Counted from the stretch's first letter, positions 4,782-18,350 are shown. The stretch is 35,824 bases of DNA from an uncultured virus (IMG/VR IMGVR_UViG_3300028833_000009) (IMGVR_UViG_3300028833_000009), one strand, 5' to 3'. Notes: generated by a model from the letters alone, not told the origin. Numbers and translations: made by a program.

Positions 4782-6227
4782 TCAGTTAAAGGTATACTCC
4801 TCAATTCTCTTAAGAAGCGTGCCTTCGCCTTTCTCAGCCAGTATAATGAATTCAAATATCTTTTCGGACCATCCGGCAATGATATTTGTCTTCTTTCCGG
4901 TAAACTGCTGCGTGCCGTATCCTTGCAGATCAATCGCATGCACCCAGATATCGTTACCTGTCTGTTTACGATACTGATCTGCCAGTGATTGAACAGTTGT
5001 ATGGCGCCACCAGGTAATTCCGGTATTGCATTCATTATCCGAAAGTATAATGACACGATCCACACGTATACCTCTGCTCATCAGATAATGGAATGGCTGA
5101 CCAATATCTGTTCCGCCAACCGTGCCCTCCTGACTGATTACAGTAGAAATCAGCGGGACATTTGCAGGAATATGCATTGGATAAATATGCGTATCAAACT
5201 GACACACATAAGCATCCTCGCAAAGTCTGTTTGCAATCAGTCCGAGCATCGTAGCGATTTCATAGCAACTAACCTTCGATTTCTGGCTTATCCAGGAATC
5301 CATTGATCCTGAAGAATCAATTGCAATAAGTGTTCTTCCTGGAATCTTCGGCAGATTGTCAACAGAATATGCTGCAGCCTGTTCGAGAGCATTCAGTACT
5401 TTGCTTCCGCATGTATCCTGAACAGCTTTGTATGCAGACAAATATCTGAAAGGCAACTGCTTGGAATTTCTTACTGCCTCAGGATTGGAAATATGATCGA
5501 GAACCCTGTCCAGATTCTGCGGCTCAGCGGCAAGAATATTCCGCAGATTCCTGAGCAGTGCCATATAGCCCACCTTACCAGAATCAATCAATGCTTCCCA
5601 GGTCTGCTGATTATTTCCTTTGGCAGACAATTCCACTTCCCAGGTATACGGAGCTTCCAGTCGATCCTCAAGTAGTTTTTTCCAGGTCTCAGACTGCTTA
5701 TCGTTCTCAGGAGAAGGATGGCAAAGGCAGAGAATATCCCTCATCTTCACTTCCTTACCGGTTCCCTTATACTTGGCAAGAGTATAAGCGTCGAAGGTTG
5801 TGAAAATATCCCGCAGTCCTTTGCGAAGACTATTGGGAATAGGCTTGCCATACTTACCGAGATAACAGGACAGAACTTCGGTTGCGTCATCTCCACGAAG
5901 CACAATGCCCTTCAATGTCCGCTTCACAAAAGGTTTCCCTTCAATTGCATGAGCCAGCTGAGCAGTCAGTACATGGGAAATAGACCGCATGTTGAACTCA
6001 CGACGGGCAAATATCGCCAGATTGGATACGAACTTCGGATCGGTCTTGATAACACGATCCACGGTTTCGATAATCTCATCAGAATTATCGCCATAGAACT
6101 TCTTCTCATTGAAGAATGAAGTCAGAACCTGGGTAATGAGTTTAGACTTGTCATCCATGGAATATGCGACATGTCCGCAATGGTTTTCGGTCTTGATGGA
6201 TTTGGCGTCATTGTTGAATTTGGACAT
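4782..6227 (-). CDS. rsr: Ro60/Rsr-family RNA-binding protein (TROVE + VWA), 481 aa; start revised to MSKFNND
   Basis: TROVE motifs (F.E.KFY, AR...NMRS, LAKY, HP.P, TWE..LS, GYMALLRNLRNI, PFRYL.A) and VWA MIDAS DSSGSM, GGTD, ILSDNE; AGGAGG SD before ATG at 6227. Confidence 0.92.
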   Translation of the reverse strand: MSKFNNDAKSIKTENHCGHVAYSMDDKSKLITQVLTSFFNEKKFYGDNSDEIIETVDRVIKTDPKFVSNLAIFARREFNMRSISHVLTAQLAHAIEGKPFVKRTLKGIVLRGDDATEVLSCYLGKYGKPIPNSLRKGLRDIFTTFDAYTLAKYKGTGKEVKMRDILCLCHPSPENDKQSETWKKLLEDRLEAPYTWEVELSAKGNNQQTWEALIDSGKVGYMALLRNLRNILAAEPQNLDRVLDHISNPEAVRNSKQLPFRYLSAYKAVQDTCGSKVLNALEQAAAYSVDNLPKIPGRTLIAIDSSGSMDSWISQKSKVSCYEIATMLGLIANRLCEDAYVCQFDTHIYPMHIPANVPLISTVISQEGTVGGTDIGQPFHYLMSRGIRVDRVIILSDNECNTGITWWRHTTVQSLADQYRKQTGNDIWVHAIDLQGYGTQQFTGKKTNIIAGWSEKIFEFIILAEKGEGTLLKRIEEYTFN

Positions 6228-6272
6228 AACAGTACCCCTCCTAAAAATATTGTTGACAATAGTAATAAGAAG

Positions 6273-6389
6273 TTTGTTCATGCAGATAAAATCGTAAAGA
6301 GTTTAGACAAAGAACACGAAAGGGGGTGAACAATGGAAACCGTAATAATTTCGAAGTAACTCTTTACTGGCAATGCTGCATGAAACAAA
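6273..6389 (-). ncRNA. Y-RNA-like hairpin B
   Basis: Stems UCAUGCAG/CUGCAUGA and GUAAAGAG/CUCUUUAC, then UUACUUCGAA; directly upstream of Ro60. Confidence 0.7.
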
Positions 6390-13283: not shown

Positions 13284-13529
13284 TTATTCGATTTCGTCTT
13301 CCTCATCTTCATCTTCAAGGTTCAGATACTTTTCAAATATTTCCCTAATCGTCATATCTTTGAAAAAATCTTTTACTTCTTTAGAATTTGCCCAGTTACA
13401 AATCAAATTAATTACATCGATATATTTCATATCAATAAATTTGTTGATTTCTTCCTGTTCATCTTCATTCATATTGATAGTCATCAGCATTTTTCCAACA
13501 GTTGCATTTACCATATTCATGTTTTCCAT
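13284..13529 (-). CDS. hypothetical protein with acidic tail
   Basis: GGAGG SD; ends LEDEDEEDEIE. Confidence 0.7.
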   Translation of the reverse strand: MENMNMVNATVGKMLMTINMNEDEQEEINKFIDMKYIDVINLICNWANSKEVKDFFKDMTIREIFEKYLNLEDEDEEDEIE

Positions 13530-13572: not shown

Positions 13573-13630
13573 ATTTAAGGAGTTGTTTCAGATGCGAAAA
13601 AAAAAAGAGGAGCCCTTGTTAGGACTCTTC
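13573..13630 (-). promoter_or_regulatory. terminator + promoter motif unit
   Basis: GAAGAGTCCT-AACA-AGGGCTCCTC-T run, then TCGCA TCTGAA ACA ACTCC TTAAAT. Confidence 0.8.
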
Positions 13631-13894
13631 TTCATCAGAATGTCTTGATATAATTTCATTTAATACTGACATGTTCATTCCTGTTACTTTGAGATTTGCT
13701 CTGCTTATTGTTAATCCAGCAGCTCCATAAGCTGTATTAAGAAGTACATACAACTTTTTGAAATATTCGTTTTCAGTCAAGTTATATAGATTCTTAGTAA
13801 TCTTTTGGGCCTGCAATAGTTTATCAGATGCCTCTGTACTTAGTTTCATCACCTCTAATAAATTGTCAAACAACATGCTTGCATCTTCTGCCAT
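13619..13894 (-). CDS. hypothetical helical protein (91 aa)
   Basis: AGGAGGTG SD. Confidence 0.75.
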   Translation of the reverse strand: MAEDASMLFDNLLEVMKLSTEASDKLLQAQKITKNLYNLTENEYFKKLYVLLNTAYGAAGLTISRANLKVTGMNMSVLNEIISRHSDEEES

Positions 13895-13909
13895 GTTATA
13901 TCACCTCCT

Positions 13910-13973
13910 ATTTATAGAAGTGTTTTGTTTGCGAAAAAAAAATAATAGGGCTAAGTCTCATGGTTCTTAGCCC
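13910..13973 (-). promoter_or_regulatory. terminator + promoter motif unit
   Basis: GGGCTAAG...CTTAGCCC, T run, then TCGCA AACAAA ACA CTTCT ATAAAT AGGAGG. Confidence 0.8.
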
Positions 13974-14144
13974 GCAACGAGGATTCCACCTAATGTTGAT
14001 ATACCTCGTCTTCAATCAACACTCCCCATATTCTCTCCGCCGATAATAATCCATATGGGTTTCATATTATCGCGGCGTACTTGTCGTGGAGCGTACCGCC
14101 TGTCCGCTCCTTGGTACACAATATATTCAAAATAACTATGTGTC
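13948..14144 (-). ncRNA. about 200-nt RNA with three tandem H-type pseudoknots
   Basis: Bounded by its own promoter motif and terminator; six stems listed in findings. Confidence 0.65.
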
Positions 14145-14195
14145 ATTATAGCGTATGTTTTAAATGCGAAAAAGTGTAGCGCTTGGCCACACTTT
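14145..14195 (-). promoter_or_regulatory. terminator + promoter motif unit
   Basis: AAAGTGTGGC-CAAGC-GCTACACTTTT, then TCGCA TTTAAA ACA TACGC TATAAT. Confidence 0.8.
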
Positions 14196-14202
14196 AATCT
14201 GA

Positions 14203-14550
14203 TCATAAAATAGATGCTGCATCGAATGGTTCGATGCCATCAATTTTTAATCTGTATAATTCTTCTTTTCCATTATAAGCGTCTTTAATCAAACACCATC
14301 CACATATATCATTTGCAGCTTCCGCAAATTTATTGTTATCTTCTTTCTTTTCTCTATCGATTCTTATAAATTCTGCTTGATCATAAGATTTATCAATGTC
14401 AAGATACTCAATTAGTCGATATGCTTTATCAAATAGCTTAATTCCACTTTTTGTATACAAGACATTTAATTCATGTTCAAGACATTTAAGTTCATCCATA
14501 AAAATCATGCCATCAAAAGATTCATAGTAAATATTTGTGTGTGTGATCAT
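14203..14550 (-). CDS. hypothetical phage protein (115 aa)
   Basis: AGGAGG SD; Y.SFDG..F.DE..CL.HE N-terminus. Confidence 0.75.
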   Translation of the reverse strand: MITHTNIYYESFDGMIFMDELKCLEHELNVLYTKSGIKLFDKAYRLIEYLDIDKSYDQAEFIRIDREKKEDNNKFAEAANDICGWCLIKDAYNGKEELYRLKIDGIEPFDAASIL

Positions 14551-14565
14551 TATTATCCACCTCCT

Positions 14566-16104: not shown

Positions 16105-16113
16105 TAGCGAACT

Positions 16114-16227
16114 TATGTAATAAGTGAGCCATTCTGTGAAACAGTTTATGAAAGTATGTAATAAGTGAGCCATTCTGTGAAACAGTTTATGAAAGTATGT
16201 AATAAGTAAGCCATTCTGTGAAACAGT
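16114..16227. repeat. 2.8 tandem copies of a 41-bp unit
   Basis: TATGTAATAAGTGAGCCATTCTGTGAAACAGTTTATGAAAG at 16114, 16155 and 16196 (one mismatch in copy 3). Confidence 0.95.
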
Positions 16228-16249
16228 GCACAACCTTAAAGTTCATGAA

Positions 16250-18273: not shown

Positions 18274-18350
18274 TGGTACTGACGGCTGGACTCGAACCAG
18301 CGACATTCGGCTTATAAGGCCGCTCCTCTAACCTACTGAGATACGTCAGC
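18274..18350 (-). tRNA. tRNA-Ile, anticodon UAU
   Basis: GCTGACG/CGTCAGT acceptor, D arm, CGGC-CTTATAA-GCCG anticodon arm, GCTGG-TTCGAGT-CCAGC T arm, encoded ACCA. Confidence 0.92.

Follow-up and report, generated by a model that had tools for sequence, protein, structure and literature searches.

On balance, we favour reading a locus of about 200 nt on the minus strand of an uncultured virus (IMG/VR IMGVR_UViG_3300028833_000009) as the gene for a stand-alone, non-coding phage RNA (roughly 14144-13935) that carries two pseudoknots. All positions are those of the window, by which we mean the whole stretch of 35,824 nucleotides that was analysed. A preliminary description of this DNA had proposed a stand-alone RNA of three tandem pseudoknots; of that pseudoknotted non-coding unit, the start signal, the terminator and two knots beyond chance (PK2 and PK3) were upheld by the analysis, and the third knot (PK1) was not. 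If the RNA is real, selection would have kept one pseudoknot geometry twice whilst erasing the likeness in sequence between the copies, and a twin geometry of this kind provides internal evidence for structure even where relatives are lacking. At present the RNA is a single orphan sequence.

Geometry of the predicted pseudoknots

The features of the locus are collected in Table 1. The first stem (S1) of PK2 comprises 8 bp, CGAUAAUA/UAUUAUCG (14072-14065 with 14048-14041), and its second stem (S2) 7 bp, formed by the loop segment CCCAUAU (14059-14053) with AUAUGGG (14031-14025); the loops read UGAAA (L1), GGAU (L2) and GCGGAGAGA (L3). PK3 has an S1 of 9 bp, AGUGUUGAU/AUCAACAUU (14023-14015 with 14000-13992), an S2 of 7 bp in which the loop segment GACGAGG (14010-14004) pairs with CCUCGUU (13982-13976), and loops UGAA (L1), UAU (L2) and AGGUGGAAU (L3). 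Reading of the sequence and our own pseudoknot finder both returned these pairings and coordinates exactly as they had first been given. The two modules thereby follow a common plan: an S1 of 8-9 bp, a bridging loop opening with UGAA, an S2 of 7 bp, a junction loop of 3-4 nt and a purine-rich strand of 9 nt. Two details of the preliminary description, namely that both loops open alike with UGAA and that the linkers are rich in purines (8 of 9 nt in PK2, 7 of 9 in PK3), were likewise borne out.

Table 1. Features at and around the RNA locus, in window coordinates
Feature	Position	Strand	Basis or remark
115-aa orphan gene, upstream of the RNA	14203-14550	-	stop at 14203
64-aa ORF overlapping the unit, judged non-gene	14012-14206	-	no SD; codon score
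Terminator-like hairpin and T-run, closing the 115-aa cassette	14171-14195	-	sequence; -13.1 kcal/mol within 14200-14165
Cassette motif TCGCA-N14-TATAAT, probable promoter	14145-14169	-	one of 11 minus-strand copies
5' hairpin (H0)	14116-14141	-	MFE fold
Module 1 (PK1)	14074-14110	-	GC-rich 6-bp hairpin 14110-14088; 4-bp GGCG/CGCC pairing unproven
Module 2 (PK2), predicted 48-nt H-type pseudoknot	14025-14072	-	pseudoknot finder, masked folding, shuffles, register scan
Module 3 (PK3), predicted 48-nt H-type pseudoknot	13976-14023	-	pseudoknot finder, masked folding, shuffles, register scan
Intrinsic terminator of the RNA	13935-13973	-	hairpin 13973-13948, U-run to 13935
Next cassette motif (TCGCAAACAAAACACTTCTATAAAT)	13910-13934	-	directly before SD of the 91-aa gene
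91-aa orphan gene, downstream of the RNA, helical	13619-13894	-	own terminator at 13627-13610
Copies of the cassette motif	15959, 15395, 15028, 14590, 14169, 13934, 13597, 7468, 7090, 6931, 6499	-	repeat scan

Laid over one another without gaps, PK2 and PK3 place 15 base pairs at the same positions, with identical letters at 11 of the 48 positions and 12 of the 15 pairs changed on both sides. A MAFFT alignment of the two was gapped and out of structural register, so the pairs were counted by script on the ungapped pair. Such changes count as compensation only if the modules share an origin or a constraint.

The geometry of PK2 and PK3 is well beyond chance. With a strict module defined as an S1 of at least 8 bp together with an S2 of at least 7 bp, 5000 dinucleotide shuffles of the 164-nt body contained one strict module in eight instances and two in none. 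The 15-pair register is found in 2 of 71,552 48-nt stretches of the window, these being PK2 and PK3 themselves, in 0 of 199,028 stretches from nine control loci, and nowhere in two related phage genomes (160 kb, scanned on both strands, ~320 kb); those two genomes contain 12 strict modules when any register is allowed, no two of them adjacent. Loosely defined modules, by contrast, do come to lie side by side by chance, as in one pair inside a 205-aa ORF of locus L011, which is why the strict thresholds matter. These figures bear directly on a reading in which the locus has no function or acts at the level of DNA, being a cassette in decay with inverted repeats that are either fortuitous or bound by a protein on the DNA. 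The RNA is an orphan that is absent from the closest complete relative, and the loose adjacent knots of L011 show what chance can produce, yet a reading of this kind is extremely improbable: under the strict threshold the chance for the stretch is about 1e-6, the register is without a match in the control loci and two related genomes (~520 kb of strand), and in duplex DNA two interleaved inverted repeats exclude each other. The window contains no paralogue or pseudogene trace of the RNA region.

When the S1 stems are masked, ordinary folding gives all three S2 helices as the best fold of the remainder. In a nested model the two PK3 helices take probabilities of 0.32 and 0.68, and the whole RNA folded in this way is unremarkable (z = -1.23; 20 of 200 shuffles as stable), because a nested model takes one helix per module. 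Pseudoknot energies were estimated crudely, as summed stacking energies with a Dirks-Pierce-like penalty, and came to about -8.5 kcal/mol for PK2 against -7.0 for its best nested fold, and to -12.2 against -10.6 kcal/mol for PK3. An advantage of about 1.5 kcal/mol only, for either module, makes both knots energetically plausible under this model, energy alone being no proof.

The claim of a third knot fared differently. The GGAGCG/CGCUCC hairpin of PK1 is solid (pair probability 0.87-0.89), whereas the 4-bp pairing that would make a pseudoknot of it lies within chance, a loop-to-downstream helix of this type and of at least 4 bp having arisen in 1666 of 5000 shuffles. Moreover, the CGCC strand of PK1 has a competitor in a lengthening of the PK2 stem by CCG/CGG, the alternative chosen in the MFE fold, and on the crude energies the PK1 knot loses to the best nested fold (-9.7 against -12.0 kcal/mol). 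PK1 has what we take to be a likeness to guanidine-III and preQ1-I aptamers, and the idea of an aptamer of either kind was dropped as Rfam gave no match. Each of the three modules is followed by a single G, and the RNA body has a G+C content of 0.48 against 0.33 in both flanks.

Start signal, terminator and coding potential

The RNA lies in the interval between the stop codon of the 115-aa gene (14203) and the start of the 91-aa gene (13894), and is preceded by one copy of a 25-nt motif, TCGCA-N13/14-TATAAT, that occurs 11 times in the window, always on the minus strand. Directly before nine of the 11 copies, with flanks read by eye, there is a hairpin with a T-run, the loop of which often reads CUAACAAGG; the example before the RNA, which closes the 115-aa cassette, is not among the sites of a consensus terminator scan. 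Behind the motif stand an SD and an ORF in seven copies and SD-less structured sequence in the other four, which are the RNA locus and three cassettes upstream of a Ro60 gene. The copy in front of the 91-aa gene is identical over 16 nt to that in front of the 115-aa gene. In the related phage L010 the motif is again largely confined to one strand, with 21 copies on the gene strand against one on the other within 18.4 kb.

Conserved within this phage group and specific to one strand, the motif is most simply read as an early promoter of the group, and it is the probable promoter of the RNA. It is a candidate for a phage-specific early promoter with unusual -35 spacing, or alternatively for a junction at which cassettes are shuffled. 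The RNA had been described as possessing both promoter and terminator of its own; the terminator is present (-12.4 kcal/mol), and of the promoter a TATAAT (14150-14145) is present and a good -35 element absent. The terminator consists of an 8-bp stem, GGGCUAAG/CUUAGCCC, with a 10-nt loop and a U-rich tail, its pairs having probabilities of 0.91-0.95. No upstream stretch of at least 6 nt is complementary to either of its arms, the longest being 5 nt, which argues against a switch of the riboswitch type; the corresponding test for a riboswitch or attenuator found neither an antiterminator nor a match to an Rfam aptamer. For the hairpin H0 to be part of the RNA, transcription would have to begin no more than a few bases from the motif.

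Assembled RNA-library data cover the locus, and parts of the stretch are without cover in the RNA runs. A contig of 159 nt spans all three modules (14129-13971) with zero differences, at a depth of 2.9; such contigs cannot show strand, start or end, and DNA in the library is a possible source of them. Of the seven pieces listed between 13000 and 16000, six, the 159-nt contig included, start 13, 14, 16, 16, 18 and 21 nt downstream from where a motif ends, and the seventh crosses a motif. These starts near motifs are a weak hint in favour of the promoter role, from two RNA runs that both represent one sample.

Another contig of an RNA run (13808-13959) has one end inside the terminator, whose 3' half it crosses, and the other in the 91-aa gene. 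As it crosses the terminator, read-through is possible, and with it a role for the RNA as a cis-acting leader of a transcript of the 91-aa gene and those beyond it, acting on that transcript or on the polymerase, for instance by processive antitermination in the manner of put or EAR through the array's many terminators, or as a stabiliser of the 5' end. The order of elements (promoter, structured RNA, terminator, gene, terminator) fits a leader, as does the separation of most cassettes by terminators. Such a role is the main rival to a stand-alone RNA and is nevertheless unlikely, since the 91-aa gene has a cassette motif of its own, neither terminator arm finds a pairing partner of at least 6 nt, and no leader or antitermination family in Rfam matches; put and EAR, moreover, presumably differ from the RNA in fold.

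It is also worth considering whether the region codes for protein. The preliminary description had stated that the unit contains no SD-led ORF, and this holds: the AAGGAG at 14112-14107 is not followed at a suitable distance by any start codon, and no SD precedes the 64-aa ORF that overlaps the unit. The latter begins within an ATGA overlap with the stop codon of the 115-aa gene, which could suggest translational coupling, and were it a real gene, coupled in this fashion, the pairings described above would be incidental. It is present as a predicted protein in a public protein library, which shows that gene calling had accepted it, and its in-frame codon score exceeds those of its two off-frames. 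At 0.032 bits per codon that score is nonetheless lower than in each of the 17 genes nearby (0.075-0.361), and it falls centrally among the values for antisense ORFs (-0.09 to 0.165). The frame passes through a terminator hairpin and the cassette motif, and a search of 1.84 billion protein representatives returned no homologue beyond the self-match, although the real neighbours are orphans too. A coding interpretation would, in addition, leave two superimposable knots unexplained, and we regard it as highly improbable.

Searches for relatives and known RNA classes

Every search for relatives of the RNA came back empty, which marks it as an accessory orphan. No match was obtained by blastn of 13600-14560 against 50,697 phage records, by scans of IMG/VR with the 91-aa, 115-aa and 269-aa neighbours, with a 23-nt word from PK1 or with the cassette motif, or by a search of metagenome contigs with a 22-nt word from PK3; that word and a 24-nt word from PK2 are absent from 185,579 species genomes. 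Metagenome contigs with the 302-aa endolysin comprised eight distant loci (31-58% identity), in which 32 loose knot matches were found by our own count, none of them in tandem. Thirteen IMG/VR loci with Ro60 proteins of 59-62% identity, and the whole of the related genomes G001 and G002, matched at cassette junctions only and never in the RNA body, and neither the Ro60-related loci nor the two related genomes hold a structural counterpart of the RNA. The closest complete relative is G001 (the same phage as L010; 100,880 bases, Ro60 61% identical), which has the cassette motif but, neither by sequence nor by shape, any counterpart of the RNA; the lineage can therefore do without it. With no homologue found, the pairings have no covariation between species behind them. 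The two genes flanking the RNA gave self-matches only among 5.8 billion proteins and are present on two contigs, the longer of 97,824 bases.

The preliminary description had likened the RNA to the antitoxins of type III toxin-antitoxin systems and had suggested a comparison with Rfam. At gathering scores, Rfam recognised only a tRNA-Ile in the whole window, and a search of 13850-14250 gave nothing at E <= 10 beyond three chance matches. In the published loci, repeats of 31-62 nt are present in 1.9-5.6 copies, the toxin gene lying behind a terminator (PMC3401426, Table 2), and nucleotide repeats detectable by Tandem Repeats Finder are a criterion for such an antitoxin (PMC3401426). CptI of Eubacterium rectale is described as a 45-nt H-type pseudoknot with coaxial stems, an L1 of 1 nt and a 9-nt A-rich loop, the toxin processing single-stranded tails (PMC4627078); among the Lachnospiraceae, cptIN loci are frequent (PMC3401426). 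Escape from ToxIN has been described for a phage with pseudo-ToxI, which is called 'very similar' in sequence to ToxI and consists of near-exact copies (PMC3594212).

The RNA might be an antitoxin or antitoxin mimic directed at one or several host endoribonucleases of the ToxN, CptN or TenpN type, or form a new pair with the 91-aa protein. The likeness begins with the general layout as published, tandem H-type pseudoknots of 31-62 nt with a promoter before them and a terminator and small gene after them: PK2 and PK3, predicted as 48 nt each, are H-type units of that size, and with modules of 37, 48 and 48 nt (n=3) the array is inside the published ranges for length and number (PMC3401426). The purine-rich 9-nt strand of each module recalls the 9-nt purine-rich loop that runs along the S1 minor groove of CptI (PMC4627078). 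These similarities, the frequency of cptIN in Lachnospiraceae and the fact that the structural genes are closest to those of a Butyrivibrio phage (54.5% and 41.5% identity) keep the idea of a mimic open at low odds, and a phage with a pseudo-ToxI provides the precedent. The differences are several. As described, the known antitoxins are near-identical repeats that are cut in their tails by the cognate toxin, and pseudo-ToxI shares this repetition (PMC3594212), whereas Tandem Repeats Finder reported 0 rows for the RNA at a minimum score of 30. The modules of the RNA are 1 nt apart and so leave no single-stranded tails. Its L1 of 4-5 nt and its junction loop of 3-4 nt are unlike the 1-nt L1 and coaxial stems reported for CptI (PMC4627078). 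The 91-aa neighbour is helical and has no ToxN-like match and none in PADLOC, Rfam is silent, and no exact word of 22-24 nt occurs in the 185,579 species genomes. With neither repeats nor a toxin, the predicted fold and the terminator are the only defining features of a type III locus that were found. The analogy as first drawn was thus not supported, there being no repeat, no toxin-like neighbour and no Rfam match; the narrower proposal of an antitoxin mimic is neither supported nor excluded by the analysis, and we consider a type III function of any kind very unlikely.

The nearest architectural parallel is STAXI (RF01728), a pseudoknot repeated two and usually three times on mobile elements, near accessory and anti-restriction-type genes (PMC2864571). 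The tandem arrangement has its counterpart in the two strict modules 1 nt apart and the weaker third; STAXI, however, is described as a family of the Enterobacterales that is conserved in sequence and has UUCG tetraloops (PMC2864571), the RNA has no UUCG loop and no likeness in sequence between its modules, and RF01728 gave no match either at E <= 10 (13850-14250) or at the gathering score (whole window). Tandem-pseudoknot RNAs on mobile elements, such as STAXI and the type III antitoxins, are few and mostly not understood.

Consecutive H-type pseudoknots of poorly conserved sequence are also a feature of tmRNA, in which PK2-PK4 form an array of three. The likeness ends there, as the RNA has no recognised tRNA-like end or tag frame, and neither ARAGORN, which reported the tRNA-Ile only, nor Rfam found a tmRNA. 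The further idea of an attP copy of a host tmRNA gene was discarded for lack of a tRNA-like end and of an exact match in species genomes. A sponge for CsrA or for ribosomes, operating through GGA- or SD-like linkers, was also dropped, such sequences not being enriched by our estimate.

Y RNAs offer a last comparison. Those of bacteria and phages (YrlA/YrlB) are described as encoded within 4 kb of Ro60 and as having a long stem formed from their 5' and 3' ends (PMC4201824). The RNA resembles them in being a small structured RNA of a Ro60-encoding phage that has its motif in common with three Y-like RNAs; it is unlike them in lying 7.7 kb from Ro60, albeit on the same strand, in lacking a terminal stem and in having no Rfam match.

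Possible role and phage setting

The window is part of the genome of a tailed phage, all of its genes lying on the minus strand. Tail and lysis genes (35-16 kb) are followed by an array of small orphan genes (16-7 kb), and beyond the array lie a Ro60/TROVE homologue (4782-6281, minus strand) and ThyX. Two structural proteins of the phage have 54.5% and 41.5% identity to proteins of Butyrivibrio virus Ceridwen, and the only public runs that contain the stretch are labelled as sheep gut metagenome; the host is probably a Gram-positive rumen bacterium, a Butyrivibrio-like member of the Lachnospiraceae. The RNA locus takes up a single position in a series of small cassettes, early or accessory in kind, which open with the 25-nt motif behind a terminator hairpin.

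From this arrangement the following course of events may be envisaged. Transcription would start at the motif, given its presumed promoter role, and the knots would form during synthesis: in each, the S1 hairpin would arise first, and 9 nt later the 3' strand of S2 would meet its sole loop partner. The finished RNA would act in trans by presenting two copies of one shape to a protein, the shape being a stacked helix with its UGAA bridging loop and a purine-rich strand in the minor groove, and would serve as a decoy or scaffold in early infection. We infer this trans-acting, shape-based binding of a protein from three considerations: the position in an accessory cassette array, the duplication of structure without sequence, and the lack of a cis switch. 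One specific form of it is a decoy, free in sequence and defined by shape, with two and perhaps three copies of the geometry, that soaks up an RNA-binding defence protein of the host, CptN-type endoribonucleases being an example. This would be a generalised version of the pseudo-ToxI trick that copies the sequence of no single host antitoxin. As a variant, the motif common to the RNA and the three Y-like RNAs suggests a fourth client or partner RNA of Ro60. A decoy so specified, its variant included, is distinctly unlikely. Situated in the early accessory array of a rumen phage with Ro60 and Y-like RNAs, the RNA offers a compact test case for RNA-based takeover of the host or counter-defence.

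Of the products encoded next to the RNA, that of the 91-aa gene is helical in its model, and PADLOC, Pfam and PHROGs returned nothing for it. For the 115-aa orphan, PADLOC gives a weak similarity (E = 1.6e-4) to Csa3, in the C-terminal part of that protein, and the orphan may on this account be a winged-helix DNA-binding protein.

The Ro60/TROVE homologue matches Pfam TROVE at 1e-34 and vWA_Ro60 at 1.6e-13. Upstream of it, three SD-less cassettes with the same motif (6476-6375, 6908-6785 and 7066-6940, minus strand) specify RNAs whose 5' and 3' ends pair to close the predicted fold, with a U-run after each. Their predicted folds are more stable than those of shuffled sequences (z = -5.2, -4.6 and -4.5; 0 of 200 shuffles as stable), and a box around ACUUCGAA is common to the window, L010 and L011. 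On these models the three are candidate phage Y RNAs; no Rfam family matched them at E <= 5, and the YrlA box GNCGAAN0-1G was not found by eye. In L010, an SD-less cassette (13628-13700, plus strand) has at its start a hairpin and then CUGAUGAG, a sequence reminiscent of a hammerhead core; at gathering scores Rfam reported no ribozyme there.

The tRNA-Ile gene of the window (anticodon UAU, 18274-18350, minus strand) lies between the lysis and tail genes, and in related phages tRNA genes are located just upstream of the Ro60 genes. In contigs of a DNA run (depth 76.6) and of an RNA run, position 13317 is joined to 15222 with 35 other letters in between, a form that skips the block containing the RNA and the 91-, 115- and 49-aa cassettes. 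Both sides of the join lie in paralogous genes, and it may represent a relative without the block, another phage, or an artefact of paralogous cassettes or repeats. Just downstream of the tail-lysozyme gene, three tandem 41-nt repeats (16109-16231) are 85-95% identical to one another, and two of the three contain promoter-like hexamers.
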